In this document: positions 39,143 to 57,033 of the stretch, piece by piece
Layout: each line of letters begins with the position of its first letter
How positions within the stretch are numbered: position 1 is the first letter of the stretch
Virus record (IMG/VR): IMGVR_UViG_3300035703_000003
Direction: 5' to 3' (one strand)
DNA length: 64,000 nucleotides
DNA from: a virus
Lineage: Duplodnaviria > Heunggongvirae > Uroviricota > Caudoviricetes
The notes under the pieces: generated by a model
What the model saw: the letters and a program-made list of their open reading frames with translations, nothing else
Databases searched by the model: none
What the model was told of the DNA's origin: nothing
Translations under genes and position numbers: made by a program

Positions 39143-42100
39143 TCAACCGTTTAATTTACTTTCTAACTGTGCTACTCTTTCTGCTAATTCCTTGTTTTGA
39201 ACTGTCAGCTCTTTAACAGCTTCAATTAGTAAACCAACCATGTTACCATATGCAACAGTTTTTATACCGTCTTCGTTTGTGATTACTACTTCTGGAATTA
39301 CTTCTTCGACTTCTTGTGCAATAACACCCATATGGGTTTTATTATCGTCTAAGTCTTTTCTAGTAAATGTAACACCACGAAGTTTTAATACTTTTGTTAA
39401 CGGATCTGATATTATTTCAATATTATCTTTTAATGTAACATCTGAGTAAGCACACACGTCACCTGTAGCAGTAAATGTTCCGGTATAAGAACCTGTCATT
39501 GCTACAGTAGGAGACCAACCTTCGCCTGCTGTTCCTGTTACCGAGATGCCGTTACCAGCAGTAAGTCCTGCTACATAGTTACCGGTTGTATCTGTTCCAA
39601 GAGCAACACTATTTGCAGCAATAGTAGCAGTGATTGTGATATCTGCACTTCCGTTAAACGAAGCAGATCCGGTTACATCTCCACCGAGTGAAATTGTTCT
39701 TGCTGTTGTAAGAGTCGCAGCAGAACCTGTAATATTGATGCCCCAGTTGCCAGAAGCGCCAGAACCAGTTAGTGTTGGGGCAAAGGATGTGTAATTAGTT
39801 CCGTCTAATATTGTGCGCCAAGCTGTTAAAGTACCGTTATTTCTACCCCTTACTGCTAATTGACCAGTCCTATAATCGCCAAATATTTGATGAACCCAAC
39901 TAGAACTATAAGCCTGTGAATATAAAGCACCGTCTGTTTGCCCCAGAAGAGAAACCCCAGTAATATAGCCTATGCCGTTATCATTGATAGTATCTGGACC
40001 AGCTCCATTTGTAGAATTTCCGTTCCTGAATTCAATGCCATCGATTTGGCCGGCAGTGGTTGCGCTAGAAGCATTACCACTCAAGGTAGCAGTAATAGTT
40101 CCTGCACTAAAGTTTCCACTTGCATCACGTGCAACAATGGCGTTAGCAGTATTTGCATTTGTTGCAGTAGTAGCGGAGTTTGATACCTTACCTGCAGTTG
40201 AAATTGTTGCTAATTTTGTGTCAACTATACCTGCGGCGGAATTAATATCTGCGTTAACAATCGAATCTGCAGTGATAGCCGCTGATATTGCAATGTTAGC
40301 ACTTCCATTGAACGAAGTAGCAGTTCCTGTCACATCGCCGCTTATCGCAATAGTCCTAGAAGTTTGAAGTGTGGTTGCTGTAGTTGCGTTTCCGCTCAAT
40401 GCCGCAGTAATTGTTCCTGCAGAGAAGTTACCGCTACTATCACGGAATACAATTGTGCTGCCAGTGTTAGCATTAGTTGCGTTCGATGCTACTGTAAAAG
40501 TAGAACCGCTAGATTGGTTAGCAGTAAATGTTGCACTGCCGCTTAACCCGTTTCCAGAAACAGCCAATGTTAAAGTTCCGTCGTTAGGAACACTGTATTC
40601 TGCACTTGTTGGTATATTAAAGTATGTCGAACCATCGTTTGTAAACTGCCAACGATCTGTTGTTTCATTCCATATTAATGCAGTGTTAGTGCTAGTTCCA
40701 CGTTCAATTTCGATGCCTGCGTTTTGACTAGGAGTTCCGGTTTCATCGGCATTTAAGGTGATAATATTATCACCTACGTTTAATGTAGTTGTATTAACAT
40801 AAGTTGTAGTCCCTGTTACAGTTAAGTTACCATATATGTTTACTGTATTAGTTGCACCCGAAGTGCTTGACCCGATGTTAATTGCAGTTGTTGATCCACT
40901 TGCACCGCCGGTTCCGAGGTTAATGGTCTTTGTTACACCACTAGCATTTGTTCCGGTTGCAATATTAAGTGTGTGAGCAACAGTCGATCTGTCAAGAGTG
41001 ATAGTTCCGGTTTGTGAAGTGCCACCTATTGTTAATGCACCCGATGTTTGTGCAGTTGCAAAGTCGACTGCAGCGGTTGTATTGCCACCTAGTAATGTAG
41101 TTGCAACGTTGCCTGCAGTAATAGTTCCGCCTGATACAGTTAAGTTGCCGGTAACAGTTCCTGCGCCGGCAACGTTAATTAAACCGCCAACAAATAAGTT
41201 ACCGTTCATACCAACGCCGCCGTCAACAGTTAACGCACCAGTGTCAACAGTTGTTGATGCTGTAGTATTTGTGATTGCAATAGCAGTTGCAGTTGTAGCA
41301 CCACGACCTGTTACAGATGAAAGAGTATCTGCTTCTGTTCCTGTTATAGTAATTGTGTTAGCATCAGTTCTTGTTACAGATACAATACCGCTACCAACAA
41401 AAGCAACGTTATCTGTAGATGCATCGCTACCTGTTAATCTTAATACAGTATTAGTCGCAGTTTCTGCGCTTATAGTGTATGTTGTATTTGAACCAGCAGC
41501 GGTCCAAGCTAGCTGACCCGAGCCGTTTGTTTGTAGTAAGTAACCGTTAGAACCATCGGATGTTGGCCATCTTAACCCGTCGAGTTGGATGTATCCGGAT
41601 CCGTCTGGTGTGATTAAAATGTTACCGTTACTTCCTACTGCACTAACAATGCTTTGACCGTTAACATCTAAGTTACCACCAAGTTGCGGAGTTGTATCTT
41701 CTACAATATTTCCAGTTAAACCGCCCGATGTAATAAGTGCTGCACTGAAGAAAGTCCCGCTACCATCCACTGTTCCTTTTTGTAAAACTTGGCTTGTGGT
41801 GTTTGAAGTAAATACCGTAAAATCAAGATAATCTGTTGTGCCATTTAGATATATCGTTCTATTAAGATTTGGTGATTGACCGGTAGAAGTGTTAATTATT
41901 TCTTGACTTAAAGCATATGAATTTCCGTTTTTCCTAATTTGCAAATTAGTTTGATTGTTGGAAATTACACCAGCTACCCACCATGCAGATAAAGTAACAT
42001 CATAATATCCAGCAATAGTCGGAGTAAACCGTTTAGTTGTTGGGTTCCACCAACTTTGTGCATCATCATAATCCACAAAATTAATTAATGTGTCTGCACC

Positions 42101-45100
42101 AGATGTCACTGTTTGATCTGTAGATAGTATACCTATAGCTATATAAGAACTAGCGACAATCCCGCCGCCAGCAACGTTTTGGAAATTCAACTGTCCGGCA
42201 CCGTTAGTTACAAGAGCCTGACCAATGGATCCGTCTGTTGTAGGCCATTTAATTGAGTTAATATCAACACCGCCGGTACCCGAACGAATTGCTACAGATG
42301 AAGTGCTGTTAGTGCTACCAATAGTAACAGCGGTCACACCACTAGTGGTCGAGCCGGTTGCAATGTTAACGGTTTTGGTTCCTGATGTATTTGCACCAGT
42401 CGCAATGTTAAGTGTATGAGCACTAGTGCTAGGATCTATTGTCATAGTTCCTGTTTGACTAGTACCGCCGACAGTTAGTGTTCCGCTAGTTAATGCGTTT
42501 GCAAAGCTGATGTTAGTAGTTGTGTTACCACCTAGTAATGTGGTTGCAACGTTACCTGCGCTAATGTCGCCGCCACCTACAAATAAGTCGCCTCCTATAC
42601 CAATACCACCTGTTACTATTAATGCACCAGAACTAGTGCTTGTAGAGTTAGTTGCGTTTGTTATAGAGATCGCAGTTGCAGTAGTTGCACCACGACCAGT
42701 GACAGACGATAATGTGTCGCTTTCTGCAAAAGTATTTGTAATTCTGATAGCATCACTGGCTGCATCAACGTCAATATTGATACCTGAACCACTTACAAGT
42801 GTTAGTGTGTCACCTGTCGCATCTGCTACTGCGCTACCTGTTCCTGCCCAGGTGTAACCGCTATCAGTATCTGTTACAGTAATAGTTCCAAAGTCTGAAC
42901 TTTGGCTTGTTAAGTATGTTGCTGTAGTAACCGCAGTTACGTGACCCATTTCATCAACAGATATACTTGCTATACCTGCAGATCCTTGGCTACCGCTTAA
43001 TGTCGATGTGTCTGCGTGAGCGAATGTAATTGTATCGCCCGATTCTGCAATTGTTAAGCCATAAGTTGTTCCAGTTGCACCTACTGCTAGAATTATGTCA
43101 TCTGTTCCGCTACCACTGCCGCCCGCTGTTAAACGAATAATCTCACTGTATATGTCGCCCCCTGCTTCGGTGCTTACACTGTAAGTTGTGTTAGTGTTAG
43201 TGACTGTTTCTGATCCAGTTGTATACGCTGTAACGTGTCCAAACGTATCAAATGTTAGACCTGTAACATATGTTCTAGAAGTTGCGGTTAAGTTTGCTGC
43301 AGAACTAGTATCTGCGTGAGCAATAGTTGCAGCGGTTCCTTCGCCTGCCGATGCGCTTATTGTAAGACCGCTTGTTCCTGTTTGAACTCCCGGAGTTCCG
43401 TCTGCAAGAGTTGCAACATAGTTACCAGTTGTATCTGTTCCAAGAGCAACACTATTTGCAGCAATAGTAGCAGTGATTGTTATATCAGCACTTCCGTTAA
43501 ACGAAGCAGATCCACTTAAATCACCGCCGAGTGAAATTGTTCTTGATGTTGCAAGTGTTGTTGCTGTAGTTGCGTTTCCACTAAGTGCCGCAGTGATAGT
43601 TCCTGCTGCAAAGTTACCACTACTATCACGAGCAACAACTTTTGATGCTGTATTTGTAGTAGTTGCGTCGACTGCTAGCGTTAGCCCGGCGCCTTCACTT
43701 CCGCCATTACCGCCAGTGATATATGAGCCGTTTGTAATACTTGCTACGTAGTTACCGGTTGTATCTGTTCCTAGCGCAACGCTATCTGCTGCAATAGTTG
43801 CTGTTAATGTTACGTTAGCACTTCCGTCTATACTTACGTTACCAGATAAATCGCCGGCTAATGTGATAGTTCTAGCTGTTGTCCAACTTGCTGCAGAACC
43901 TGTTATGCTTGCAACATCAAGTATTCCTGTTGTTCCGCTAAACACTTCACTTGTATTAGTTGCATCTGGAATAAAAGTAAATCGACCTGTGCTATCATCA
44001 AATCCAAAGAAACCTACCTTTGCTGCACTTCCATTGTGCCAACGGAATTCGATACCACGATCTTTATTATCATCGGTACTAGGTGCAGTGTCGCCACCTA
44101 ATGTAAGTATCGGATCATCTAGTGTTACGGTTGTGCTATTAACTGTAGTTGTAGTTCCATTTACAGTCAAATTACCAGTTACTGCTAAATTGTTATTAAC
44201 TGTGACTGTGCCACCAGATGCACTACCCAAGTTTATGTTAGTTGTTGAGCCAGATGCACCGCCTGTTCCTATGTTAACAGTTTTAGTAGTTGCGTTTGCA
44301 ACTGCGCCAGTTGATATATTAGTTGTACTTGCTGCAGTGCTGTCGTAACCTAAGTTAAGTGTTGTAGTTGCACCAAATGCGTTAACTGTTGTAGCAGTTG
44401 TATCAAATAATCCCATTGTTGCACTTGCTGCAACTATACTTGTAGTAAACGACGGACTAGTGCCAAATACTAATGCACCACTGCCAGTTTCATCACTAAT
44501 TACACCGGCTAATTCAGAGGATGAAGTTGCAGCAAAAACTGAAAGTTTATTTGCAGTGACAGCTAACGTGCCGCTTGCAGGAACAGTTACCGATGACCCG
44601 CCAGCATCTGCCGTTAATGTAATATTTCCTGTGTTCAGAGTTATAGTTCTGCTACCGTTGTTAACACCGGTTCCACCATATGTTGGGCTAATAATGCTGC
44701 CATTCCATGTTCCACTAGTAACAGTTCCAACAGTTGTAGCAGCGGCGGAATTAACAGCCGCAGTTGTAACAATTTCAGTTCTTACGTTTGCAAGTGTTTT
44801 TGGTCTAATTGCACCATCACTGGCTATTTCCACATAGTAATGTGTTGCAGCGGTTGTAGTATCTGAAGCCGATGACGTGATAGTTCCTGCACTAAAGTTA
44901 CCACTTGAGTCTCTTGCAACTATCGCACTATTTGTGTTTGAACTTGTAGCAGTGGTTGCAGAATTTGATACTTTACCTGCAGTCGAAATAGTTGCTAGTT
45001 TAGTATCGGCTATTGCTGCACTTGCGTTAATATCTGCGTTTACAATCGAATCAGCAGTGATGGCTGCTGATATTGCAATATTAGCACTACCATCGAATGA

Positions 45101-47161
45101 AGTGGCAGTTCCAGTTACATCTCCGCTTATTGCAATAGTTCTTGCTGTTGCAAGTGTTGTTGCTGTAGTTGCGTTTCCACTAAGTGCCGCAGTGATAGTT
45201 CCTGCTGCAAAGTTACCGCTGCTATCACGAGCAACAACCTTTGATGCTGTATTTGTAGTAGTTGCGTCTACAGCTAGTGTTAACGTTGCACCTTCACTGC
45301 CGCCATTACCACCTGTTATGAATGAGCCGTTTGTAATACTTGCTACATAGTTACCGGTTGTATCTGTTCCAAGAGCAACACTATTTGCACCGATTGTTGC
45401 AGTTAATGTCACGTCAGCAGTTCCGTTTATACTAACATTTCCTGATAAATCACCACCAAGTGTTATTGTTCTACTATTTGCCCATGAACTAGCTGTAGTT
45501 GCATTTCCGCTTAGTGCCGCAGTTAATGTTCCAACAACTGTTAAGTCACCTCGCACATTTGCATCATTTGCAACTTCTAAAGAATTGTGTATCCTTGCAT
45601 TATTATAAACTATTAAATTATTTTTAACGTGTAAATCTTCGTCAACTATTAATCTATTTCCGGTAACTCTAGCCGATTCTGAAGTTGTATCATATTCGAA
45701 TATTTTATCATTGTCTGAACATACCACAAATACTTTGTTAGCAGTCGAGCTTAAATCAAACCCAGACGGATTGGTGGCATTAACTGTTGAAGTAATTGTG
45801 CTGATATCAACTTCATCTGCATATGCTGCAGATGTGATGTTCCAAGAAGAGCTTAAATTAAATTTAGATATAGAATCATGAACACTGTCTAATACATATA
45901 ATGTATTACCATCTGAAGTCATTTTTATTGACGTAGGCTTAGGAACATTTGCAGAAATGCTAAGTTGTTGAGAATAAGTTGCAGTAGTTATGTCCCATGC
46001 AGTTCCTAAGTTATATTCATATATCCTTGTATTTTGTTGGCCCAGTATATACATTTTTGTACCGTCTGGTTTAAAAAATAATCCATGAGGCTGTGTATCT
46101 TGTGAAGATATATCTATGCTATCAACAAATGATGCAGTAGATAAGTTCCAACCGGTAGATAAATCATATTGATGGACACTAGTGCTATCGGTACCTACTA
46201 CATAAATTTTTGTTCCGTCTGCTTTGACAAATAACGATGTTGGTGTAGTTTCCTCTGCACTTACATCAAGTGATTCAAGATAACTTAATGTATCTACTTT
46301 ATAAGGAGTGTTAAATAAATACTGGTAAACAGTAGCTAAACTTCCAGTCGATAGCAGATAAAATCCGTTTGTATTATCGATAAAAATTTCTGTTACATTG
46401 GTATCTTCAGAAGTAGTGCTAAACAAGTTTCCGTTGTATTTCCAAGAATCTGTGCCGGTAGTAGATCCAACAGATACTTCGCCAAAATCGATTGCAGTTG
46501 CAGCAATGTTTCCGTTAACATCAAGTTTAAAGCTAACACCTGGTGTTGTAGTATCGCTTTCGCCATACCCTAATCTCATACTATGAGCAACTGTAAGTTT
46601 ACCATCAGTTGTAAGTGCCATTGCACCTTGTGCAACAGTATGTGTCGAATCGCCCCACCAGAATCCTTGACTATTATTATTATCCATTTGGAAAGTCATG
46701 GCTTTTTCTGTATCAACACCACCATAAGTTACACTGTCTACTAAACCTATTGTATATGTGCTATTATTCCATAGTCTATACTTGTCTCTACCACTTGCGG
46801 CTGATAGAGTAACATTACCGCCAGATACTATTAAATTCCCCGCAACATCCAATTCACCTGTGCTTTTGATTCTGAGCTTTTCTGCGGCTGTGGCGCCAGC
46901 TGCCATTGTTTTAAATACAAAGTCAAAATCTTCACTACCTGATGTTACATCAGTTGTTACAACTTCAATCAAACCACCGATTTCATTATTAGTGTTGCTA
47001 GTTTCTGTAATAAATCGAAGTCCGGTACCTATGCCATTGGCAGGTGTCCCTGTGGTAGTATGCGTTAGCGTAATTGGATAAACTACGCTATCATTAAAAG
47101 CATCATTTTCTGTATATGTGCTAAACGCTGTATTTAAAAATTCGCTTAGATATTGCGCCAT
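39143..47161 (-). CDS. Giant tail fibre protein (2672 aa) with repetitive beta-rich core and C-terminal intramolecular-chaperone (peptidase S74-like) domain
   Basis: About 100-aa tandem repeats (ARDSSGNF(A/S)AGTITAALSGNATTATTLAT(A/S)RTI...). Conserved fibre block LDDPILTLGGDTAPSTDDNKDRGIEFRWHNGSAAKVGFFGFDDSTGRFTFIPDA. C-terminus ...CAYSDVTLKDNIEII...LRGVTFTRK...HMGVIAQEVEEVIPEVV matches the autoproteolytic chaperone domain of endosialidases and L-shaped fibres. Confidence 0.75.
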   Translation of the reverse strand: MAQYLSEFLNTAFSTYTENDAFNDSVVYPITLTHTTTGTPANGIGTGLRFITETSNTNNEIGGLIEVVTTDVTSGSEDFDFVFKTMAAGATAAEKLRIKSTGELDVAGNLIVSGGNVTLSAASGRDKYRLWNNSTYTIGLVDSVTYGGVDTEKAMTFQMDNNNSQGFWWGDSTHTVAQGAMALTTDGKLTVAHSMRLGYGESDTTTPGVSFKLDVNGNIAATAIDFGEVSVGSTTGTDSWKYNGNLFSTTSEDTNVTEIFIDNTNGFYLLSTGSLATVYQYLFNTPYKVDTLSYLESLDVSAEETTPTSLFVKADGTKIYVVGTDSTSVHQYDLSTGWNLSTASFVDSIDISSQDTQPHGLFFKPDGTKMYILGQQNTRIYEYNLGTAWDITTATYSQQLSISANVPKPTSIKMTSDGNTLYVLDSVHDSISKFNLSSSWNITSAAYADEVDISTITSTVNATNPSGFDLSSTANKVFVVCSDNDKIFEYDTTSESARVTGNRLIVDEDLHVKNNLIVYNNARIHNSLEVANDANVRGDLTVVGTLTAALSGNATTASSWANSRTITLGGDLSGNVSINGTADVTLTATIGANSVALGTDTTGNYVASITNGSFITGGNGGSEGATLTLAVDATTTNTASKVVARDSSGNFAAGTITAALSGNATTATTLATARTIAISGDVTGTATSFDGSANIAISAAITADSIVNADINASAAIADTKLATISTAGKVSNSATTATSSNTNSAIVARDSSGNFSAGTITSSASDTTTAATHYYVEIASDGAIRPKTLANVRTEIVTTAAVNSAAATTVGTVTSGTWNGSIISPTYGGTGVNNGSRTITLNTGNITLTADAGGSSVTVPASGTLAVTANKLSVFAATSSSELAGVISDETGSGALVFGTSPSFTTSIVAASATMGLFDTTATTVNAFGATTTLNLGYDSTAASTTNISTGAVANATTKTVNIGTGGASGSTTNINLGSASGGTVTVNNNLAVTGNLTVNGTTTTVNSTTVTLDDPILTLGGDTAPSTDDNKDRGIEFRWHNGSAAKVGFFGFDDSTGRFTFIPDATNTSEVFSGTTGILDVASITGSAASWTTARTITLAGDLSGNVSIDGSANVTLTATIAADSVALGTDTTGNYVASITNGSYITGGNGGSEGAGLTLAVDATTTNTASKVVARDSSGNFAAGTITAALSGNATTATTLATSRTISLGGDLSGSASFNGSADITITATIAANSVALGTDTTGNYVATLADGTPGVQTGTSGLTISASAGEGTAATIAHADTSSAANLTATSRTYVTGLTFDTFGHVTAYTTGSETVTNTNTTYSVSTEAGGDIYSEIIRLTAGGSGSGTDDIILAVGATGTTYGLTIAESGDTITFAHADTSTLSGSQGSAGIASISVDEMGHVTAVTTATYLTSQSSDFGTITVTDTDSGYTWAGTGSAVADATGDTLTLVSGSGINIDVDAASDAIRITNTFAESDTLSSVTGRGATTATAISITNATNSTSTSSGALIVTGGIGIGGDLFVGGGDISAGNVATTLLGGNTTTNISFANALTSGTLTVGGTSQTGTMTIDPSTSAHTLNIATGANTSGTKTVNIATGSTTSGVTAVTIGSTNSTSSVAIRSGTGGVDINSIKWPTTDGSIGQALVTNGAGQLNFQNVAGGGIVASSYIAIGILSTDQTVTSGADTLINFVDYDDAQSWWNPTTKRFTPTIAGYYDVTLSAWWVAGVISNNQTNLQIRKNGNSYALSQEIINTSTGQSPNLNRTIYLNGTTDYLDFTVFTSNTTSQVLQKGTVDGSGTFFSAALITSGGLTGNIVEDTTPQLGGNLDVNGQSIVSAVGSNGNILITPDGSGYIQLDGLRWPTSDGSNGYLLQTNGSGQLAWTAAGSNTTYTISAETATNTVLRLTGSDASTDNVAFVGSGIVSVTRTDANTITITGTEADTLSSVTGRGATTATAIAITNTTASTTVDTGALTVDGGVGMNGNLFVGGLINVAGAGTVTGNLTVSGGTITAGNVATTLLGGNTTAAVDFATAQTSGALTIGGTSQTGTITLDRSTVAHTLNIATGTNASGVTKTINLGTGGASGSTTAINIGSSTSGATNTVNIYGNLTVTGTTTYVNTTTLNVGDNIITLNADETGTPSQNAGIEIERGTSTNTALIWNETTDRWQFTNDGSTYFNIPTSAEYSVPNDGTLTLAVSGNGLSGSATFTANQSSGSTFTVASNATNANTGSTIVFRDSSGNFSAGTITAALSGNATTATTLQTSRTIAISGDVTGTATSFNGSANIAISAAITADSIVNADINSAAGIVDTKLATISTAGKVSNSATTATNANTANAIVARDASGNFSAGTITATLSGNASSATTAGQIDGIEFRNGNSTNGAGPDTINDNGIGYITGVSLLGQTDGALYSQAYSSSWVHQIFGDYRTGQLAVRGRNNGTLTAWRTILDGTNYTSFAPTLTGSGASGNWGINITGSAATLTTARTISLGGDVTGSASFNGSADITITATIAANSVALGTDTTGNYVAGLTAGNGISVTGTAGEGWSPTVAMTGSYTGTFTATGDVCAYSDVTLKDNIEIISDPLTKVLKLRGVTFTRKDLDDNKTHMGVIAQEVEEVIPEVVITNEDGIKTVAYGNMVGLLIEAVKELTVQNKELAERVAQLESKLNG
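39950..45360 (-). repeat. Multiple near-identical ~0.3-kb nucleotide repeats inside the giant fibre gene, also shared with gene 51217..57033
   Basis: Antisense track ORFs 43473..43751, 44877..45350 (and 39972..40367) translate to nearly identical peptides (...ASVVAVVAFPLSAAVIVPAAKLPLLSRATTFDAVFVVVASTASV...), as do 53795..54073 and 54083..54718 in the second gene. The underlying DNA is therefore roughly 90 percent or more identical. Confidence 0.7.
45660..46295 (-). repeat. Four tandem copies of an approximately 50-aa repeat in the N-terminal part of the giant fibre
   Basis: Repeats read ...FVKADGTKIYVVGTDSTSVHQYDLSTGWNLSTASF..., ...FFKPDGTKMYILGQQNTRIYEYNLGTAWDITTATY..., ...KMTSDGNTLYVLDSVHDSISKFNLSSSWNITSAAY... 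and a fourth variant. Confidence 0.5.
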
Positions 47162-47171: not shown

Positions 47172-50087
47172 TTATGCTTGTGCTTCTGACCATCTTAGCA
47201 ACACACTTGCTCGTGCTGTACCTGTTGTTGTTCTTACGTTTATAGCTAGAATATCAGGACCGTCTGGATATTTGTAATCACCCCCTAACGGCGCTCCTGT
47301 TAATTCTTTCAATCTAGACAAGTCGATTAATCCGTCTGTTGCACCGTCTGTTGTCGACGGTGCTGTAAACGCAAAAACTTGTTCTCCGGGCAATGCTGCG
47401 CTACCAGTACTCCAAGTTACACTTGTTGCAATCTGTGCAAAGCTAGGCTGGCCACCGACTGATTCTGTGTTAAGTGCAGACCATGTTGCGTTACTAAAAT
47501 TCTTAGGATTTAATATACCTTCGATAACAGTTGCTCCCGAAGATGTACCAGAGCTAACTGCAGTACTAAGTGCTTGTAATAACAACTGACTTCTATTTAA
47601 TAAATCTTTTGCACCTAGTTGTCCTACTGCGCTGTTTGCCACGCTAGGTGCAAGTCTTATTAAGAAGAATGTTTGTGTTGTTGTGCTTATGTTAACATGA
47701 GTGCGCTGATAGTTAAAGAAGTATCCACGGTCTTCATCATATCCGCCATCTGCAATTAATGCACTACCCCAGTGTGTGAGAGTTGGACTACAAGTGTTAC
47801 TAATAATAATAGCACCTGTATTTGCAGTGTGTGTTGTTGCACTTCCCGCTGTCAAGTTGTTTATATTACCTTGTTGATATTGCACTAACGTAGCTGCTCT
47901 AGTACATCCGGTGAAATTTCCTGGGCCTGTGGTTGTACTTCTGCCAGTATATGAAACGATTTCGTTATCTATATACAATGTGCCAACATCAGGGAATAGC
48001 GTTAAATCTGCTGCCGGGACCGTAGTTTGAGATCCATTCATACTAGCTGTTAAGTATGTGCTAGGACTATCATTCTCGATACTATAACGAATAGGCAAGT
48101 TACCACTTCTCATATATGCTTCGTCATTAATATTGTTATTTTTAAATCTGTGAGCCATTACCCAATGACCATCACTTCCTCTAGCCATGAAGTCAATATA
48201 ACCTGCACCATACCAGCTATATTGAATACCCATCATTTGCATTTTATTTAAATCGATGGTGTAACCACTTGGACCTGTACCGTCCATATTATCTATATTG
48301 AAATCACCTTGTTTAACTCTAAGTTCTTCTACAAGAGATACACGAACCCCGCTAGCTGCAATACCCCTATAGTCCGGTGTTACAAATATGTTAGTATCGT
48401 CGTACACTTGAGTCACGAAGTGAATCATACCCCTAATAACAATACGGTCACCCACTCGTAATTGTTGTGTAAATCGTGTGCCGTCGCCGACTACTAAGTT
48501 GTCGTTAGGGTTAACAGTAACCGTTCCTGCAGTTTGAAATGTACTACTGCGTCTTACACAATACAAATCGATTCCGTTGAATTCCCAGAATATACCGTTT
48601 TGATCGTCAAAAACTCCAGCACGAACTGCAGCACCTTGCCAATTTTTGACATATATTTTTGTTTTACGATCTAACGCCGGTGTAGCACTACCAAGACTTG
48701 TTGTTGCAGTAACAGTAAATGTATAGTCGTCGACAATACTAGCAACTGTATAAGTTCCGTTATACCCACCTGTAGTGACACCTTGCAATTCAATTGTCGA
48801 TCCTGCCTGTAATCCATGATCTATAGCATCTGTTTCAATAGTTATAGTAGATCCAGAACTTGTGCCGCTTGCTGAAACTGATATAATACTATAATTTGGT
48901 TTAAATAAGGTACCTGTTGACCATACATATCCTTTCCCCGACTGATATCTGAAATACTTTTTAGTTTGTCGAACAACTGCAGCGCCGTATGTTGGTGTTT
49001 TAGTAGATAAAATAACACCGCCATCCATTGGTCTGTGCAAAATTGTTGCGTTTGACTGTACGTGTAATGTCACACTAGACGGACTGCTTACTGCACCGCC
49101 TGCTCTTGCGAGATATGTTAATGATGTTAAACTAGGTGTTGATAACACAACAAACGGGCCAGATGCTAATGCAGCATTAGTTCCCGAACCGACAGTAACG
49201 TGTATTAATGTTCCAGGTATTAATCCATGGGGTCCTAAGAAGTTTAATGTAATAGTACTAGGGTTGCTACCGTTGCTAGATGCACCGTTATTAGGAACGC
49301 TTGCACCGTTATAAAATTCTCCACGTTTTACTAACGTTTCGTCTGTTTTTAAACTTTGGCCGTTTGACGTTCCTACTAAGCCTCTAGCAAAATATGTTAC
49401 ACTAGTACTAGAAGGAACGCTAAACACTACAAAGTTACCGTCGGCACGACTAAATCCGGATATACCTGAATTTAGTCCGCTTACGTTCACTACTGCGCCA
49501 ACTGCCATGCCGTGTGTAGTGGTAAATGTAACAGTAATCAAACTATTAGAACTACTAGTAGTTGTATAATTTGTAGTGATGGTTGATACTTCTAAGTCAA
49601 TACCTGGCAATTCATACGCACCTGGATAACCTCTTACTGTTCCATACCCTGCCCACTTGGTTGGCTGAAGACCATATTCAAAGTCAGCGTCAATTAGTGA
49701 TTGCGGGTTAGATACTCTCATACGGTCAATTGCGTCTGTACCAAATCCCCAGGGTTTGATCGACATTGCTTCGTGATCTTTGCTTTCTAGATAGATAGAC
49801 AACCTGTCAGTTGAGCTCATTGTGCTAGTATCTGCTGCAAGAGTTAGTGTAGTGTATCCGTCTGTCTTGTATGATATACTAGGAAATACTGTTCCGTAAT
49901 TGCCTGATGTAAATGCAGTTGTTGTTCCGGCAAAATCACTATCTGCAAAATTGTAAATTATAACGTTATCAGTTGTGTTAGTTATAACTAAAAAGTCTTC
50001 TAATACATATCTTCCCGGTATTATAATTGTGCCGGAGCCAGCGGCTGCGGGAGAAAATACATATTCACTTATTCGTTTCTTTGCCAT
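47172..50087 (-). CDS. Large structural protein (971 aa), tail fibre or baseplate-associated
   Basis: Long beta-rich S/T/G/N-rich ORF within the fibre operon. Confidence 0.6.
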   Translation of the reverse strand: MAKKRISEYVFSPAAAGSGTIIIPGRYVLEDFLVITNTTDNVIIYNFADSDFAGTTTAFTSGNYGTVFPSISYKTDGYTTLTLAADTSTMSSTDRLSIYLESKDHEAMSIKPWGFGTDAIDRMRVSNPQSLIDADFEYGLQPTKWAGYGTVRGYPGAYELPGIDLEVSTITTNYTTTSSSNSLITVTFTTTHGMAVGAVVNVSGLNSGISGFSRADGNFVVFSVPSSTSVTYFARGLVGTSNGQSLKTDETLVKRGEFYNGASVPNNGASSNGSNPSTITLNFLGPHGLIPGTLIHVTVGSGTNAALASGPFVVLSTPSLTSLTYLARAGGAVSSPSSVTLHVQSNATILHRPMDGGVILSTKTPTYGAAVVRQTKKYFRYQSGKGYVWSTGTLFKPNYSIISVSASGTSSGSTITIETDAIDHGLQAGSTIELQGVTTGGYNGTYTVASIVDDYTFTVTATTSLGSATPALDRKTKIYVKNWQGAAVRAGVFDDQNGIFWEFNGIDLYCVRRSSTFQTAGTVTVNPNDNLVVGDGTRFTQQLRVGDRIVIRGMIHFVTQVYDDTNIFVTPDYRGIAASGVRVSLVEELRVKQGDFNIDNMDGTGPSGYTIDLNKMQMMGIQYSWYGAGYIDFMARGSDGHWVMAHRFKNNNINDEAYMRSGNLPIRYSIENDSPSTYLTASMNGSQTTVPAADLTLFPDVGTLYIDNEIVSYTGRSTTTGPGNFTGCTRAATLVQYQQGNINNLTAGSATTHTANTGAIIISNTCSPTLTHWGSALIADGGYDEDRGYFFNYQRTHVNISTTTQTFFLIRLAPSVANSAVGQLGAKDLLNRSQLLLQALSTAVSSGTSSGATVIEGILNPKNFSNATWSALNTESVGGQPSFAQIATSVTWSTGSAALPGEQVFAFTAPSTTDGATDGLIDLSRLKELTGAPLGGDYKYPDGPDILAINVRTTTGTARASVLLRWSEAQA

Positions 50088-50098: not shown

Positions 50099-51184
50099 TT
50101 ATCCTAGTGCAATCGCTATTGCCACTGTTGTTGATATTGGTGTATCTAACCCAGAAGGTCCTGCATCACCTTCTGGTCCTGCTGCACCAACGGCAGCATA
50201 AACTTGCCAAGTTGTGCCGCTATAAACAAAATCTATTTTAATTTGACCTAAGTCTAATATAAAGTTGTCTGCAACACCTTCTATTGTGCTTCCGTTTCTT
50301 GCTATTGTTAAATTGTTTGCTTCCCAGTTATCTATATCAAACACTACCACAGTGTCGCCCGCACTGGGAGATGCAGGTAGTGTTATTGTAAAACTGCCGC
50401 CCGATGTATTTGTTAAAATCCTATCACCTGCAGATGCAGTATAGTTTGCTGTTTTTGTTAAATAGTTACCGGCTACTGCACTTTGCACAAATTGTGTTGT
50501 TGCGAGTTGTGTTGTATTTGTGCCAGATGACGCTGTAGGTGCAGTAGGTGTTCCAGTAAGTGCAGGACTTATTGAAAATACTAAATTACCTGTTCCTGTT
50601 TCATCAGAAATAACACTTGCAAGTTGTGAACTTGTAGTAGCGGCAAAAGAACCTAAATGATCTTGTAATCTAGCAAACGTTCCGTTTGCAGTAGGTAACG
50701 TTAATGTAGGTGTGCCTGCTGCAGCCGGTGCAGTTATAGTTGCAGTTCCTGAACTAGAACCTGATATTAATAAAGTTTTACCTGCCGCAAGTGCTATATG
50801 TTCACTACTAGTCCATGCATCTGTAGCATTAACCCAGTTTAATGTTTTATCTGTAGCACCTTTGAGAGTTATGCCGCCGCCGTCTGCGGTTGTGTCTGAC
50901 GGTGAAGATACCGAGCCCAATTCAATATTTTTGTCGTCAACTGAAATTGTTGTGCTGTTAACAGTAGTTGTTGTTCCGTTTACAGTTAAATTTCCTGTTA
51001 CAACTAAGTTATTGTTAACTGTTGTGTTTCCAGTGCCTGCGCCCAAAGCAATTGTGGTTGCAGCACCAAATGCGTTAACTGTTGTAGCAGTTGTGTTAAT
51101 CAAACTTAAAGTTGTAACACCAGTTGTGATATCTCCGCCCACAACCAAGCCGTTTTTGACTACAAAATTTTTATCATTGGCCAC
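50099..51184 (-). CDS. Tail fibre protein (361 aa) sharing the NNNL(A/V)VTGNLTVNGTTTTVNSTT(V/I) block with the giant fibres
   Basis: Motif shared with 39143..47161 and 51217..57033. C-terminal triple GAAGPEGDAGPSG (collagen-like G-x-x) segment. Confidence 0.65.
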   Translation of the reverse strand: MANDKNFVVKNGLVVGGDITTGVTTLSLINTTATTVNAFGAATTIALGAGTGNTTVNNNLVVTGNLTVNGTTTTVNSTTISVDDKNIELGSVSSPSDTTADGGGITLKGATDKTLNWVNATDAWTSSEHIALAAGKTLLISGSSSGTATITAPAAAGTPTLTLPTANGTFARLQDHLGSFAATTSSQLASVISDETGTGNLVFSISPALTGTPTAPTASSGTNTTQLATTQFVQSAVAGNYLTKTANYTASAGDRILTNTSGGSFTITLPASPSAGDTVVVFDIDNWEANNLTIARNGSTIEGVADNFILDLGQIKIDFVYSGTTWQVYAAVGAAGPEGDAGPSGLDTPISTTVAIAIALG

Positions 51185-51216
51185 GGTTCACTCTCCCCAA
51201 TTGGCATATATTGTAT

Positions 51217-54200
51217 TTATGCAAGGAGAAGAGTCTGAACTATTTTATATTGTGTGCTATTGGTACTTACTTGTGTTGCTAATATTCTAACATTTCCACT
51301 ACTAATGTCAACATCATATGCTGCTAAATCACTAGCGCCTGTGTTAACCATAGCATATTGTGTTGCACTAGCTGTAGTTCCGTTGTGAACAATTAACATT
51401 TCTGTTATGCTTCTTGCACCGGATACTGTATCTCTAGCTTGTATAACAACTTTGCCGCCGCCAAACGTAGTAGCACTGAATGATGCAATTGATGTTTGTG
51501 TAACGGTTGCTAATGTAGCAGTTGCACTATCTAAATTATATGTGCTATCAATTCTGATTGCACCGTCAACATGTAACTTTTCTGCTGGTGTTGAAGTATT
51601 AATACCAACATTGCCGTTTAATAATGTGTAACCTGTTCCAGTTGGAGTTAATGTTATATTTTGGTCAGAACCACCGGCTGTAATAGTAATTGCGCTCGAA
51701 CCGGTTATATTACCTACACCAGTTAAATTACCCGAAACATTTGCACTACCATCGAAGTTTTGACCCCACAGAGTTCTTGTAGTTTGTAGTGTAGTTGCAG
51801 TTGTTGCGTTTCCGCTTAACGCTGCAGTAATAGTTCCGGCAGTAAAGTTACCGCTTGAATCCCTGGCAACTATAGCACTGTTTGTATTTGAACTAGTCGC
51901 TGTTGTTGCAGAGTTGGATACTTTACCCGCAGTTGATATTGTTGCTAGTTTTGTATCAGCAATTGCTGCAGCGGAATTTATGTCTGCGTTTACAATTGAA
52001 TCAGCAGTGATAGCCGCTGATATTGTGATATCGGCGCTTCCATTAAACGAAGTAGCAGTTCCTGTGACATCTCCACTTATCGCAATGTTTCTTGCTGTAG
52101 TTAGTGTGTCTGCATTACCTGCTGTTGCAACGTTTAGATTTGAAACTCGAGTCGTTGATGTAATTACAAATGGCGCTGTGCCAGTTGCAATGGTGTTTGT
52201 TAATTGGTTGTTCATGTTAAGTGTAGTTACACTAGTAAGAGAACCTGTAACGTTAGCAGAACCATTGAAGTTTTGACCCCAAAGTGTTCTAGTAGTTGTT
52301 AGTGTTGCTGCACTACCTGTTGTGTTCTGGTTACCAGTAGTATTAACACCTGGCAAATCAATATTAGCCGATCCATCAAAACTTACACCGCCAATATTTC
52401 TTGCAGTTTGTAATGTTGTTGCTGTAGTTGCATTTCCACTTAATGCAGCGGTAATTGTTCCTGCAGTAAAGTTACCACTTGCGTCTCTAGCAACAATAGC
52501 GTTAGCTGTGTTTGCGTTTGTTGCTGTTGTTGCCGTGTTGGATACTTTACCTGCAGTTGAAATCGTTGCTAGCTTTGTATCAGCAATTGCTGCAGCGGAA
52601 TTTATATCTGCGTTAACAATTGAATCAGCAGTGATAGCTGCTGATATTGTAATATCAGCGCTTCCATTAAACGAAGTAGCAGTTCCTGTGACATCTCCAC
52701 TTATCGCAATGTTTCTTGCAGTTTGTAGTGTAGTTGCAGTAGTTGCGTTTCCACTTAATGCAGCGGTAACTGTTCCTGCGCTGAAGTTGCCGCTCGAATC
52801 TCTAGCAACTATAGCACTATTTGTATTTGAACTAGTAGCAGTAGTAGCGGAGTTTGATACTTTACCAGCTGTTGATATTGTTGCTAGCTTTGTGTCAACT
52901 ATACCTGCTGCGGAATTTATATCTGCGTTAACAATTGAATCAGCAGTGATAGCTGCCGATATAGTGATATCGGCGCTTCCATTGAACGACGTTGCAGTTC
53001 CTGTCACATCTCCGCTTATTGCAATATTTCTTGCTGTTGCTAATGTTGTTGCAGTAGATGCATTACCTACTAGAGCACCCCTAAAGTTTGCTGCTTGAAT
53101 ATCAGCAAGAGCAAAAGAGGCATGACTAGTATCAATAAATGGACTTACATCTGGCTCTGGGGTATATCCTTTAAATACTTTAAAATATCCATCACTTGCA
53201 TCCCTAAAGAAGCCGCCGTGTTGATAAGAAGTATCATAATATCCAAATGCAAAACCTAAATCCGGATTTGCATTTGTTCTTGCTCGTGCTGTTCCGCCCG
53301 AAACATATGAACCAGTTGCAGTATTTGCTATAGTAAACGAATTCGTTGCAACTGCAGTTATAGTTTGATTTGATAAGTTATACGCAGATGGATCTACACC
53401 GATAATACTTACAGACATACCCGGTGTATAATTATGAACTTCGTTGGTGGTATAAACAACGTTTGTGCCATCTCCTACTACATTGGTTATGGTTGTTAAT
53501 ATCGCCTGATTCATGTAGATCATATTATCAGTTACTGATAAATTAGCAGCGGTAGTGGTGGTAGTTGTACCACCTACAGACAAGTTACCGTCTATAGTGA
53601 CATTACCATCGAACAATCCATTATTAAATGTCACGTTTGCAGTAGTCGAAACGTCTTGTCCGATTGCAATTGTTGGAGTTGCACCTTCACCTGTGTTGTT
53701 TGATAATGTTACACCCGTGCCTGCTACAAGACTTGCTACGTAGTTACCAGTTGTATCAGTTCCAAGAGCAACACTATCTGCAGCAATTGTTGCAGTGATA
53801 GTAATATCAGCCGACCCATTGAACGAAGCAGACCCGCTCAGATCTCCTCCAAGGGAAATAGTTCTTGATGTCGCAAGTGTAGTTGCTGTAGTTGCGTTTC
53901 CACTTAGTGCCGCAGTGATAGTTCCTGCTGCAAAATTACCACTACTATCTCGAGCAACAACCTTTGATGCTGTATTTGTGCTAGTTGCGTCGACAGCCAG
54001 TGTTAGTCCAGCGCCTTCGCTTCCGCCATTGCCACCAGTGATGTATGATCCGTTTGTAATACTTGCTACGTAGTTACCAGTTGTGTCGGTGCCAAGAGCA
54101 ACACTATCTGCTACAATAGTTGCAGTTAATGTTACGTTAGCACTTCCATCAATACTCACATTACCTGATAAGTCACCACCGAGTGTTATTGTTCTACTAT

Positions 54201-57033
54201 TTGCCCATGAACTAGCCGTCGACGCATTACCGCTTAGTGCCGCTGTAATTGTTCCTGCAGTAAAGTTACCGCTTGAATCCCTGGCAACTATCGCACTATT
54301 TGTGTTTGAACTTGTAGCAGTAGTTGCAGAATTTGATACTTTACCTGCAGTTGATATTGTTGCTAGTTTTGTGTCAGCTATTGCTGCACTCGAATTTATG
54401 TCTGCGTTTACAATCGAATCCGCAGTAATACCTGCTGATATTGTAATGTCAGCACTTCCGTTAAACGAAGTAGCAGTTCCTGTGACATCTCCGCTTATTG
54501 CAATAGTTCTTGCTGTTGCAAGTGTTGTTGCTGTAGATGCATTTCCGCTTAGTGCTGCAGTGATAGTTCCTGCTGCAAAGTTACCGCTGCTATCACGAGC
54601 AACAACCTTTGACGATGTATTTGTGCTAGTTGCGTCAACTGCTAGCGTTAGTCCAGCGCCTTCACTGCCGCCGTCACCGCCGGTAATATATGAGCCATTG
54701 GTGATACTTGCTACGTAGTTACCGGTTGTATCTGTTCCAAGAGCAACACTATTTGCTGTTATTGTTGCGGTTAATGTTCCGTTTGCTAAATCAGTTAGAG
54801 TTACGCTTCCAGACAAGTCTCCTGCAAGTGTAATAGTAGGATCTGGTTTATTTAAAATATCAGACCAATCTACATTTGCATCTATTGTTCCTTTTGTTCC
54901 ACTAAACACTTCGCTCGTGTTAGTTGCATCTGGAATAAAAGTAAACTTACCTGTGCTATCGTCGAAACCGAAGAATCCTATTTTAGCACTAGTTCCGTTA
55001 TGCCAACGGAATTCTATACCTCTGTCTTTGTTATCGTCTGAGGATGGAGAAGTATCTCCACCTAATGTAATAACAGGATCGTCTATTGTGGTTACAGTTG
55101 AATTAACTGTGGTTGTAGTTCCGTTAACTGTTAAGTTTCCTGTAACAATCAAGTTGTTACCAATTGTTACGTCGTTGGGCAATCCAACAGTTATAGTTTG
55201 GCCACTAGCAACTGCTTCTATTTCATTTGTTGTTCCGGCAATAGTTAAAGTTTGTGTGCTTAAATTAACAGTCCCAGTTCCGGAAGTTCCTGCAATGCTT
55301 AATGTTTGTCCAGAAGATGCAGAGTCAACGTATGCTTTAATGCTTTGTTGAGTAGCAAGAGCAGTTGCACTATTGCTTGCCATGTTATCTTCATCTAAGA
55401 TACTATTAATAAGTGTAGTAGAATTGATTGTTAAACTAGAAGATACAGTCAATGCACCAGTTAATGCAAGTGTAGATCCGTTAAATGTTAGATTAGCACT
55501 GTCTTGTAGTTCACCACTACTACCAGCATAAACTACACGGTTTGCTGTTAGATCAGTTACGCTAGCACTTGCTAATGTAGTTTGACCAGTAACGCCTAAT
55601 GTTCCTGTAATCGCAGTATCACCAGATGCAACAGCTACAGTAAACTTATTTGTAGCAATTGCAAAAGTAGTATTGTCAAAAGTTAAATTTGCATTATCTT
55701 GTAATCTGCCTGCAGTTCCGACATATACTAATCTATTCGAAACAAGGTCTGATACTTTTAAATTTGCAACAGTTGTAGCACCATTGACATCTAGTGTGCC
55801 AGCAACTAATGTGTTACCGGTTGTAGCGTTTACTGTAAACTTGTTTGTAGCAACATCGAAGTTTCCGTCTACACCTGTTGCGCCAGTGACATCTAATGTG
55901 CCGGCAACTGCAGTATTACCAGTTGTAGCGTTAACTGTAAACTTGTTTGTAGCAACATCGAAGTTTCCATCTATGCCGGCTGCACCAGTGACATCTAATA
56001 TTCCAGCAATTGCTGTATTACCCGATGTAGCATTTACTGTAAACTTGTTTGTAGCAATGTCAAAGTTTCCATCAATACCTACTGCGCTAGTAACATCTAG
56101 TGTTCCAGCAATTGCTGTATTGCCTGAAGCGGCATTTACTGTAAACTTATTTGTAGCAACATCAAAACTTCCGTCTACACCTAATGATCCGGTTACATCC
56201 AATGCACCTGCAATTGCAGTATTACCTGATGAAACGTTTACTGTAAATTTGTTTGTAGCAATTGCAAATGTAGTTGCATCAAATGTTAAATTAGCATCGT
56301 CATCTAACTCGCCATCAACGGTTGCTATAATAATTCTATTACTAGTTAAGTTACTAACTTTAAGTTTACTTGCAATTACATCTCCGGTTCCGTTTGGAGT
56401 TATATTGATATTACCGTTTGTATTTGTGCTAGTGATAGCATTACCGTCAATTCTAATATTATCAATATTAAACTGTCCAGTAACATTAGCTGTTCCTGCT
56501 AATGCTAAAGTTGAACCGTTAAATGTTAAATTTGCGCTGTCTTGTAATTCTCCACTAGTTCCTGCATATGTAATACGATTATTTGTTAAATCGCTTATGT
56601 TAGCACTTGCTAATGTAGTTTGACCGGTAACGCCTAGTGTTCCTGCAATTGCAGTATTACCGTTAGAATTAGTTATTACAAACTTGTTTAGTAATGCACC
56701 GTATCTGAAATCACCGTTTTCGTCTATTTGTAATCTATGACTTCCATTTGTGTAAAAGTCTAAATCATTGTTATTAGCACCTGGAGCAGTTTCAGCAATA
56801 ATATACGTGTTGCCATCAACGTCTTTAACACCGCCAAGACTTGTCCAGTTTGTGTTGACATATCCTTCAAACGATTGTAGAGTAGAGTTAAATCTTATTT
56901 CACCTGAGTTAGGAGTATTTGGACGTTCAAACGTTGTTCCTGACGGAATTCTAATACTACCAGTATTATTAATAGTTATAGTCTCGGTATTAGAGCTAAT
57001 TCTATTTCGTTGGTGGTCAAAATTTAATGCCAT
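51217..57033 (-). CDS. Giant tail fibre protein 2 (1938 aa), repeat-rich
   Basis: Six approximately 34-aa N-terminal repeats (TNKFTVNA(T/S)SGNTAIAG(T/I)LDVTG...GNFD(I/V)A). Shares the conserved IDDPVITLGGDTSPSSDDNKDRGIEFRWHNGTSAKIGFFGFDDSTGKFTFIPDA block and the ~100-aa tandem repeats with 39143..47161. Confidence 0.75.
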   Translation of the reverse strand: MALNFDHQRNRISSNTETITINNTGSIRIPSGTTFERPNTPNSGEIRFNSTLQSFEGYVNTNWTSLGGVKDVDGNTYIIAETAPGANNNDLDFYTNGSHRLQIDENGDFRYGALLNKFVITNSNGNTAIAGTLGVTGQTTLASANISDLTNNRITYAGTSGELQDSANLTFNGSTLALAGTANVTGQFNIDNIRIDGNAITSTNTNGNINITPNGTGDVIASKLKVSNLTSNRIIIATVDGELDDDANLTFDATTFAIATNKFTVNVSSGNTAIAGALDVTGSLGVDGSFDVATNKFTVNAASGNTAIAGTLDVTSAVGIDGNFDIATNKFTVNATSGNTAIAGILDVTGAAGIDGNFDVATNKFTVNATTGNTAVAGTLDVTGATGVDGNFDVATNKFTVNATTGNTLVAGTLDVNGATTVANLKVSDLVSNRLVYVGTAGRLQDNANLTFDNTTFAIATNKFTVAVASGDTAITGTLGVTGQTTLASASVTDLTANRVVYAGSSGELQDSANLTFNGSTLALTGALTVSSSLTINSTTLINSILDEDNMASNSATALATQQSIKAYVDSASSGQTLSIAGTSGTGTVNLSTQTLTIAGTTNEIEAVASGQTITVGLPNDVTIGNNLIVTGNLTVNGTTTTVNSTVTTIDDPVITLGGDTSPSSDDNKDRGIEFRWHNGTSAKIGFFGFDDSTGKFTFIPDATNTSEVFSGTKGTIDANVDWSDILNKPDPTITLAGDLSGSVTLTDLANGTLTATITANSVALGTDTTGNYVASITNGSYITGGDGGSEGAGLTLAVDATSTNTSSKVVARDSSGNFAAGTITAALSGNASTATTLATARTIAISGDVTGTATSFNGSADITISAGITADSIVNADINSSAAIADTKLATISTAGKVSNSATTATSSNTNSAIVARDSSGNFTAGTITAALSGNASTASSWANSRTITLGGDLSGNVSIDGSANVTLTATIVADSVALGTDTTGNYVASITNGSYITGGNGGSEGAGLTLAVDATSTNTASKVVARDSSGNFAAGTITAALSGNATTATTLATSRTISLGGDLSGSASFNGSADITITATIAADSVALGTDTTGNYVASLVAGTGVTLSNNTGEGATPTIAIGQDVSTTANVTFNNGLFDGNVTIDGNLSVGGTTTTTTAANLSVTDNMIYMNQAILTTITNVVGDGTNVVYTTNEVHNYTPGMSVSIIGVDPSAYNLSNQTITAVATNSFTIANTATGSYVSGGTARARTNANPDLGFAFGYYDTSYQHGGFFRDASDGYFKVFKGYTPEPDVSPFIDTSHASFALADIQAANFRGALVGNASTATTLATARNIAISGDVTGTATSFNGSADITISAAITADSIVNADINSAAGIVDTKLATISTAGKVSNSATTATSSNTNSAIVARDSSGNFSAGTVTAALSGNATTATTLQTARNIAISGDVTGTATSFNGSADITISAAITADSIVNADINSAAAIADTKLATISTAGKVSNTATTATNANTANAIVARDASGNFTAGTITAALSGNATTATTLQTARNIGGVSFDGSANIDLPGVNTTGNQNTTGSAATLTTTRTLWGQNFNGSANVTGSLTSVTTLNMNNQLTNTIATGTAPFVITSTTRVSNLNVATAGNADTLTTARNIAISGDVTGTATSFNGSADITISAAITADSIVNADINSAAAIADTKLATISTAGKVSNSATTATSSNTNSAIVARDSSGNFTAGTITAALSGNATTATTLQTTRTLWGQNFDGSANVSGNLTGVGNITGSSAITITAGGSDQNITLTPTGTGYTLLNGNVGINTSTPAEKLHVDGAIRIDSTYNLDSATATLATVTQTSIASFSATTFGGGKVVIQARDTVSGARSITEMLIVHNGTTASATQYAMVNTGASDLAAYDVDISSGNVRILATQVSTNSTQYKIVQTLLLA
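51800..54730 (-). repeat. Repeat copies in fibre gene 2 homologous to those in 39950..45360
   Basis: Antisense ORFs 51914..52276, 52322..53098, 53795..54073 and 54083..54718 encode peptides near-identical to antisense ORFs in the first fibre gene. Confidence 0.7.

Follow-up and report, generated by a model that had tools for sequence, protein, structure and literature searches.

A cluster of mosaic fibre genes built from 105/110-residue shaft units in a probable large myovirus with a T4-like core

The locus described here belongs to the IMG/VR virus record IMGVR_UViG_3300035703_000003 (Caudoviricetes); the window is the whole stretch of 64,000 nucleotides (nt) that was analysed. Its minus strand carries, at 39143-57033, four tightly packed genes, delimited by open reading frame (ORF) calls and their translations and named gD, gC, gB and gA. 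gD (51217-57033; 5817 nt, 1938 aa) encodes a giant fibre protein that matches structural and tail-fibre families of PHROGs; gC (50099-51184; 361 aa, GTG start) encodes a short fibre protein; gB (47172-50087; 971 aa) encodes a non-repetitive, conserved virion structural protein (phrog_5838); gA (39143-47161; 8019 nt, 2672 aa) encodes the predicted precursor of a second giant fibre. From gD to gA, successive genes are separated by 32, 11 and 10 nt; they would be transcribed in this order, as in an operon. The residues T, S, A, G and N together make up 59-61% of gA and gD, and both ORFs are intact, without any interruption. The original prediction, made from the sequence alone, of two giant fibre genes of 8.0 and 5.8 kb is borne out by these two minus-strand ORFs. 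The 361-aa gene that it placed between them is present, but it had left gB, which lies between gC and gA, unmentioned.

gA and gD are long shafts of interchangeable modules, the commonest of which is a unit of 105 or 110 residues. Two versions of this unit were defined by phmmer, hidden Markov model (HMM) searches and alignment: type A (110 aa, 330 nt) and type B (105 aa, 315 nt). Both start with SGNATTATTLATxRTIxxxGDxxG..F.GSA.I and end with (V/I)VARDSSGNFxAGTITAAL; their middles differ. About 16 shaft units are common to the two giants (about seven in gA and nine in gD), with domain scores of up to 189 bits. Those of gA start at residues 551 (A), 661 (B), 1084 (A), 1194 (truncated, A′), 2214 (partial), 2256 (B) and 2475 (A′). 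Those of gD start at residues 719 (A), 829 (B), 934 (A), 1044 (A′), 1322 (B), 1427 (B), 1532 (degenerate), 1635 (B) and 1740 (degenerate). In the DNA, the repeats form families of up to nine copies with a spacing of 315 or 330 nt; blastn E values range from 1e-100 to 0 and are far beyond chance. The repeats of about 100 aa and 0.3 kb that had been noticed in both giants are these mapped units. The unit is matched by at least 1663 metagenomic proteins (E≤1e-5), in which it is combined with S74, Collar (PF07484) and other Pfam domains such as PF18454.

From N- to C-terminus, gD consists of an N-terminal domain, about five tandem repeats of 34 aa, one needle module, nine shaft units split by a globular insert of about 190 aa, and a beta-sandwich tip. 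The tandem repeats (55778-56287; family D6), located in the N-terminal third, have the consensus NKFTVNATxGNTAIAGTLDVTGxxGxDGNFDVAT; they amount to about 4.7-5 copies of 102 nt that are 73-84% identical, and Tandem Repeats Finder (TRF) gives the same period of 102. The needle module (aa 625-720; 54874-55161) has the structure NNLIVTGNLTVNGTTTTVNST ... DDNKDRGIEFRWHNG ... GFFGFDDSTGKFTFIPDA and scores 143 bits with the module HMM. The first shaft array (aa 719-1133; 53635-54879) has the order A, B, A, A′; the second (aa 1322-1842; 51508-53070) has the order B, B, degenerate, B, degenerate, with a TRF period of 315.

The domain order of gA is: conserved N-terminal domain, beta-propeller, shaft units, two needle modules, internal knob and S74 chaperone. 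Its first pair of units, A (aa 551-660) and B (aa 661-765), is encoded at 44867-45511, in DNA that is 85-86% identical to gD units. The first needle module (aa 989-1081) is followed by an A unit (1084-1193) and an A′ unit (1194-1285), the whole lying at 43307-44197; the second (aa 2105-2194) is followed by a partial unit (2214-2255) and a B unit (2256-2360), at 40082-40849. The last A′-type unit (aa 2475-2563; 39473-39739) immediately precedes the predicted cleavage site. gA also contains a duplicated segment of about 150 aa (family D9). All these features are on the minus strand.

The needle module is found twice in gA, once in gD and, in a diverged form, in gC; the DNA of the gD copy is 78% identical to that of a gA copy (family D7). 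gC is made of this N-terminal needle block, common to gA and gD, and of a C-terminal domain of its own. The motif NNL(A/I/V)VTGNLTVNGTTTTVNST occurs at residue 990 of gA, 626 of gD and 58 of gC. The blocks DDNKDRGIEFRWHNG and GFFGFDDSTG(R/K)FTFIPDA occur only in gA (1030 and 1050) and gD (666 and 686); gC has a diverged counterpart only. gC had been said to share both the first block and the second; it has the first, but the second only as a diverged equivalent.

gA ends in an S74 intramolecular chaperone (aa 2573-2672; 39146-39445, minus strand), which forms the last 100 residues of the protein, right after an A′-type shaft unit. The Pfam family Peptidase_S74 (PF13884) matches aa 2573-2626 with 53 bits (cutoff 22; E=4.2e-14), and the end of gA aligns with the C-terminal part of phage S16 gp37 (PDB 6f45, E=8e-5). 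The same Pfam search gave no Peptidase_S74 match in gB, gC or gD, so that the domain is confined to the 2672-aa protein among the four, as first proposed. In the alignment, YS(2573)DVTLK(2578)DNI of gA is opposite SSDRRIKKDI of S16 gp37. The spacing of Ser2573 and Lys2578, i/i+5, equals that of the endoNF dyad, S911/K916 (PMC8326128). Two metagenomic relatives have gA homologues, of 2887 aa (L003) and 1271 aa (L004), with a C-terminal S74 domain and an S....K dyad as well. Ser2573/Lys2578 is a putative dyad, with a predicted released fragment of aa 2574-2672. By analogy with the family, gA would be made as a precursor whose S74 domain trimerises and nucleates the folding of the upstream beta-helix, and then cuts itself off after Ser2573 by means of the Ser2573/Lys2578 dyad; the stalk ahead of S74 would be a trimeric beta-helix.

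The first ~38 residues of the unit (NA.TA..L.TARTI.L.GD.TG...F.GS.N.T) correspond to residues 97-134 of Dec (PDB 6e3c; E=5.6e-8 for the unit profile, E=2e-5 for single sequences). Among solved structures, the sole relative of the unit is the C-terminal stalk of phage L Dec, whose segment 97-134 is disordered in the monomer and was modelled as a trimeric beta-helix on T4 gp34 (PMC6449081). The remaining ~70 residues have no relative in Pfam or the PDB. The AlphaFold2 (AF2) monomer model of an A+B block, computed from an alignment of 78 sequences, has a predicted local distance difference test score (pLDDT) of 65 and no secondary structure, and was unusable for fold search; an unstructured monomer is expected if the block is an obligate trimer. 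When ten dissected segments were compared with Pfam, the propeller region alone matched; no family was found for the units, the needle modules, the knob, the middle insert of gD or the C-terminus of gC. In particular, neither the A+B block nor gD aa 1531-1938 matched Phage_fiber_2 (PF03406) or any other Pfam family at E≤1.

The beta-propeller-like region of gA (aa 260-530; 45572-46384, minus strand) matches two Pfam families of six- or seven-bladed propellers above their thresholds, SGL with 33.4 bits (threshold 26.3) and Lactonase with 32.6 bits (threshold 21.7). The internal globular insert, or knob (aa ~1663-1811; 41729-42175, minus strand), is missing from the L003 homologue, from which gA differs here by indels of 26 and 119 aa; it has no match in Pfam or the PDB. 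A propeller near the N-terminus and an internal insert are unusual embellishments for a fibre shaft. The tip of gD (its last ~107 residues, aa ~1832-1938; 51220-51540, minus strand) was modelled confidently as an eight-stranded beta-sandwich (pLDDT 88.7). It resembles the C-termini of cyanophage 'tail fiber-like' proteins (Foldseek E=1.5e-13), as well as tail-fibre, tailspike and baseplate gp9 domains, and may bind a receptor. gB matches phrog_5838 with E=1.9e-254 and has homologues in cyanomyoviruses, such as that of S-CAM1 (48%), whose gene adjoins gp13/gp14; PDB sequence searches with gB and gC found nothing. A look-up of the exact gB sequence in the index of public assemblies found no record. 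gB is the conserved, non-repetitive partner of the fibre genes and the stable anchor of the locus. That it acts as a hub or adaptor is a guess.

Relatives of the locus were found by scanning IMG/VR and metagenomes with gB. Their gB proteins are 94% (L002), 93% (L021), 82% (L003), 80% (L004) or about 50-65% (others) identical to that of the window; gB is conserved and collinear in the relatives, and the neighbouring genes vary. The whole 17.9-kb span, compared by megablast with 50,697 phage records, gave no match at the nucleotide level, so that no isolate was available for the comparison of repeat numbers, which was done on the metagenomic relatives. gD of L002 (1978 aa) is collinear with that of the window and 86-98% identical per 100 alignment columns, with two clean indels: in L002, a single additional B unit of 105 aa is inserted four residues beyond a unit boundary, and in the window the N-terminal repeat region is longer by 65 aa. 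The order of the orthologous units is unchanged. Before the last gD unit, L021 has an A unit and the window a B unit. gC homologues have 361, 486 or 496 aa; gC is 89% identical in L003, and that of L002 has a 125-aa insertion. Along gA, blocks that are more than 90% identical between the window and L003 alternate with blocks of 25-40% identity, and indels of 103, 117, 119 and 200 aa are found. The gA units 551-765 are absent at this position in L002 and L021: the conserved first ~525 residues are followed by A+B units in the window, by a 48-aa insert and an A′ unit in L002, and by a different module without A/B units in L021. In relatives with about 50-60% gB identity, the large genes that flank gB have little or no similarity to gA and gD. 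In loci L005-L009, L028, L031 and L033, the large genes on either side of gB (650-2134 aa) are unrelated ones, and the locus is a hypervariable 'fibre island'; L009 encodes two gB paralogues, of 990 aa (35% identity) and 984 aa (59%).

Comparison of the span with itself by blastn gave long matches that are 70-87% identical, the best being 92% identical over 147 nt. Exact runs extend to 72 nt within gA, 62 nt within gD and 56 nt between gA and gD, and a further gA-gD pair shares 52 nt. At identical residues of unit pairs, the proportion with the same codon is 0.53-0.75, against 0.40 expected from codon usage at saturation; divergence has thus reached about half of the synonymous sites. The copies are clearly homologous, not near-identical as they had been described.

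On the plus strand of the same span, 29 open frames of at least 80 aa were found, nearly all in one phase. Owing to the genetic code, a stop in this antisense phase requires a sense Tyr, His or Gln after a codon ending in T or C; these three residues make up 3.6-4.7% of gA, gC and gD, against 6-11% of the other window genes examined, gB included. Antisense peptides are alike at 10 or more sites, with 60-87% identity (94% in one pair); the eight or more sites previously counted are therefore confirmed, but not the near-identity of the peptides. Between the window and L002, the differences in gD at sense codon positions 1, 2 and 3 number 115, 61 and 645, and aa identity is 93.7% in the sense frame and 86.9% in the best antisense frame, a pattern of purifying selection on the sense frame. 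The phase, the depletion in Tyr, His and Gln and the better conservation of the sense frame rule out the antisense ORFs as genes. They are by-products of composition and give no independent evidence for recombination, of which their likeness had been taken as a sign.

Traces of exchange between units were found by other means. The junction between successive units is conserved: (V/I)VARDSSGNFxAGTITAAL|SGNATTATTLATxRTI. Of the four longest exact runs, three (the pair of 72 nt and the gA-gD pairs of 56 and 52 nt) are at or beside such a junction; the 62-nt gD pair is within the N-terminal Dec-like motif of the units. The nucleotide identity of gB between the window and L002 is 88.6%; the DNA of orthologous units is 80-88% identical, and that of paralogous units within the window up to 86%. 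Among the sites that distinguish gD unit 934 from its orthologue in L002, gA unit 551 agrees with the window at 40 and with L002 at 13 (p=3e-4); the corresponding counts for gD unit 829 and gA unit 661 are 28:13 (p=0.03). The identity of the latter two units is patchy, 93-100% in two tracts (45-nt windows) and 76-84% elsewhere. In a permutation test of run lengths, p was 0.0005-0.011 for 4 of 21 same-type pairs, two of which survive Bonferroni correction; most of the pairs show no excess of long identical runs. A recombinase of the UvsX type, encoded elsewhere in the window, is in keeping with exchange. Two more specific mechanisms were considered and not retained. The site pattern of gD unit 829 is mixed (20:13, p=0.3) and gives no sign of a simple 5′/3′ hybrid of the two tandem L002 units, such as a single unequal crossover would produce. 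For a mechanism of the diversity-generating retroelement type, no reverse transcriptase was found among the 33 window ORFs scanned with PHROGs and Pfam, a scan that left out most of the smaller ORFs and was not a dedicated search.

The unit junction offers in-frame homology for unequal crossing-over and for short conversion tracts. Together with the module differences among relatives, this homology indicates that whole modules are gained, lost and exchanged as the fibres evolve, inside each of the two genes and from one to the other. We read this evidence as traces of unequal crossing-over and short conversion that have recurred between units of the same gene and between those of gA and gD, on a timescale that would roughly equal that of the split between the window and L002 and need not extend to the present in the sampled population. 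Since about half of the synonymous sites have diverged, the exchange is described as recurrent and not as demonstrably ongoing. The original prediction of ongoing recombination between the fibres thus holds for the exchange itself, by virtue of the module differences and the 40:13 pattern, but neither for its present activity nor for the near-identity from which it was deduced. Module exchange may affect host range.

Taken as a whole, the locus is probably an operon-like cluster of mosaic trimeric fibre genes, in a large myovirus with a T4-like core, whose modules have been gained, lost and exchanged. Several points weigh against this reading of the exchange: the statistics for conversion tracts are modest after correction for 21 pairs, the 40:13 pattern could also result from conversion in the L002 lineage, and, of the two short-read assemblies that differ by one unit, either might in principle be in error. 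The repeats might instead be old duplications held by purifying selection, without meaningful recombination between gA and gD since their origin. The limited identity of the copies, synonymous sites that are about half randomised, the lack of long-run excess in most unit pairs and the unchanged order of the L002 gD units all agree with this explanation, which is nevertheless improbable: the gA paralogue shares the window allele at most of the informative sites of gD unit 934, unit identity is patchy with tracts of 93-100%, run lengths are significant in 4 of 21 pairs, and relatives with 93-94% gB identity show whole-unit indels and module replacement. It is more improbable still that part of the architecture is an artefact, with units collapsed, expanded or chimerised by a short-read assembler. 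A unit-level error would leave the frame intact because unit lengths are multiples of three; window gD is one B unit short of L002 gD; and the contigs of four relatives break off within a unit (L002 at its right end; L003, L021 and L022 at their left ends), which indicates that such fibre genes are systematically cut off in short-read metagenomes. Against this, the copies differ at 13-30% of positions and share exact runs of at most 72 nt, and would be told apart by reads of 100-150 nt; both giant ORFs are uninterrupted; L002 gD, assembled independently, is collinear with only two clean indels; and gD unit 829 does not look like a simple hybrid of the two L002 tandem units. Collapse of repeats in this window is unlikely for these reasons, and the earlier warning about dense repeats stands as a general caution only.

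The mosaic fibre proteins are most likely tail fibres, and a tail location is favoured, with reasonable confidence, over the head or neck; both the presence of gA and gD in the virion and their attachment to the tail are deduced from sequence. A less likely alternative is that the giants are capsid or neck fibres (decoration fibres or whiskers) which extend from the head or collar and make a reversible first contact. The cluster directly follows the major capsid protein gene (59019-60176), the best PHROG matches are labelled 'head and packaging: structural protein' (phrog_697, 6002, 6005 and 5838), phrog_3018 'head decoration protein' also matches, Dec, the sole solved match of the unit, is a capsid decoration protein, and S74 also occurs in neck appendages such as GA-1 gp12 (PMC8326128). 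However, tail-fibre PHROG matches are numerous (phrog_356, 11011, 21722, 7389 and 1980), the gD tip resembles domains of tail fibres, tailspikes and baseplate gp9, a Laminin_G_3 neighbour matches baseplate-wedge-type families, and the label 'head and packaging' is a broad bin for uncharacterised virion proteins. The mixture of 'head' and 'tail' labels, like the presence of the Dec-type motif in a capsid decoration protein, still counts against the assignment to tail fibres. Further points against the reading as trimeric fibres concern the predicted beta-helix of the units: the AF2 monomer is without secondary structure, and the units have neither a Pfam family of their own nor a Phage_fiber_2 match. 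The self-cleavage of gA is predicted from conserved residues only.

Each ingredient of the locus has a precedent: S74 chaperones, gp34/Dec repeats, giant cyanomyovirus fibres and domain shuffling of receptor-binding proteins. Among S74 fibres and spikes (K1F endoNF, T5 L-shaped tail fibre, K5 lyase, GA-1 gp12, S16 gp37), gA is typical in having a C-terminal chaperone after a predicted beta-helical shaft, a PF13884 match above threshold and a Ser and a Lys five residues apart at the start of the domain. In gA, the S74 domain and its predicted cleavage site come after a 2573-aa composite shaft with a propeller and a knob, and not after an enzyme or a short fibre. The T4 gp34-type repeat, or Dec stalk (6e3c), resembles the first ~38 residues of the unit but is here only the head of a 105/110-aa unit, the other ~70 residues of which consist of one of two alternative middles and a conserved tail. 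The best isolate matches are in the cyanomyoviruses S-SSM5, S-RIM2, S-CAM1 and S-SM2 (gD 41-46% identical over at most 41% of its length, gB 48%), whose giant structural or tail-fibre-like genes belong to the same PHROG families and have the same C-terminal tip fold; however, no collinear homologue was found in the phage collection, and the large terminase (TerL) of the window points to a PA5oct/Atu_ph07-like lineage instead. In contrast with the T4 long tail fibre system (gp34-gp35-gp36-gp37/38), the cluster has no PHROG family of the gp34, gp35 or gp36 type; matches to 'long tail fiber distal subunit' are mainly at the S74 end of gA. Shuffling and mosaicism of domains are known in phage receptor-binding proteins (Smug et al. 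2023, PMC10684548). As there, whole modules are gained, lost or replaced, and fragments at least 70% identical are found in different fibre genes; here, the exchanged elements include a well-delimited unit of 105/110 aa whose junction is conserved and in frame, and copy number has changed by exactly one unit.

The proteins of the gA-gD cluster have no close homologue in isolates, and most of the unit is structurally undescribed. The locus is a clean, quantifiable example, from an uncultivated lineage of large phages, of fibres that evolve as whole units are gained or lost and as two fibre genes exchange modules. It defines a widespread shaft unit with structural precedent for its first third only, and similar fibre islands can be located and compared by means of the unit HMM and of gB as a conserved anchor. 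The current understanding of phage fibres is left unchanged. A more far-reaching interpretation, regarded as rather doubtful, is that the units, with their conserved in-frame junction, are a built-in recombination cassette through which co-circulating phages of the lineage change fibre length and module order and, with appreciable frequency, transfer modules from one fibre to another, gA being a multi-receptor fibre of tunable length. gA would then have several potential binding domains along its shaft (propeller, knob and tip), and not be a shaft with one tip.

The genes around the cluster are those of a tailed phage. Upstream are genes for a portal, a prohead protease and the major capsid protein; downstream are genes for a gp15-like tail protein, a tail sheath, TerL, a gp32-like single-stranded DNA-binding protein and a UvsX-like recombinase (14851-15948). 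TerL is 58% identical to that of the Pseudomonas jumbo phage PA5oct and 50-54% identical to those of Sinorhizobium phage Phosso and Agrobacterium phage Atu_ph07; TerL was the core gene compared with PA5oct/Rak2-like jumbo myoviruses. The window contains 30 tRNA genes in an array on the minus strand (72-10682), and, among the more distant relatives (gB about 50-60% identical), contigs attain lengths of 159 and 175 kb. On the basis of gene content, TerL similarity, the 30 tRNAs and the long contigs of relatives, the source phage is probably an uncultivated, large (jumbo-type) myovirus with a T4-like core.

Two proteins encoded upstream of gD on the minus strand are likely further members of the cluster. 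A 242-aa protein with a Laminin_G_3 domain of the concanavalin-A-like lectin fold (57080-57808; PF13385, E=3.4e-15) is encoded directly upstream of gD and also matches PHROGs of the baseplate-wedge type. A 372-aa fibre-like protein (57810-58928) matches tail-fibre PHROGs. It has an internal duplication of 41 aa, LSSFSVGAEGTASGDGSIAYNNTTGVFTYTPP, and no exact direct repeat in the window is longer than the one in its gene (74 nt, at 58213 and 58336, with a spacing of 123 nt).

On the other side, two genes downstream of gA, a glycosyltransferase-like protein of 196 aa (37883-38473, minus strand) is encoded; it is conserved in L004 and matches Pfam Anp1 (32 bits; cutoff 28.8), with a weak GT2 match, and might conceivably modify the fibres, which are rich in Thr and Ser. 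A NUDIX hydrolase gene (36255-36785, plus strand; Pfam E=5e-13) lies between the gp15-like tail gene and the fibre cluster. One tRNA of the array (5658-5730, minus strand), which ARAGORN calls 'tRNA-SeC', has the anticodon TCA, would read UGA and could be opal-suppressor-like; the long ORFs of the window read normally under table 11.

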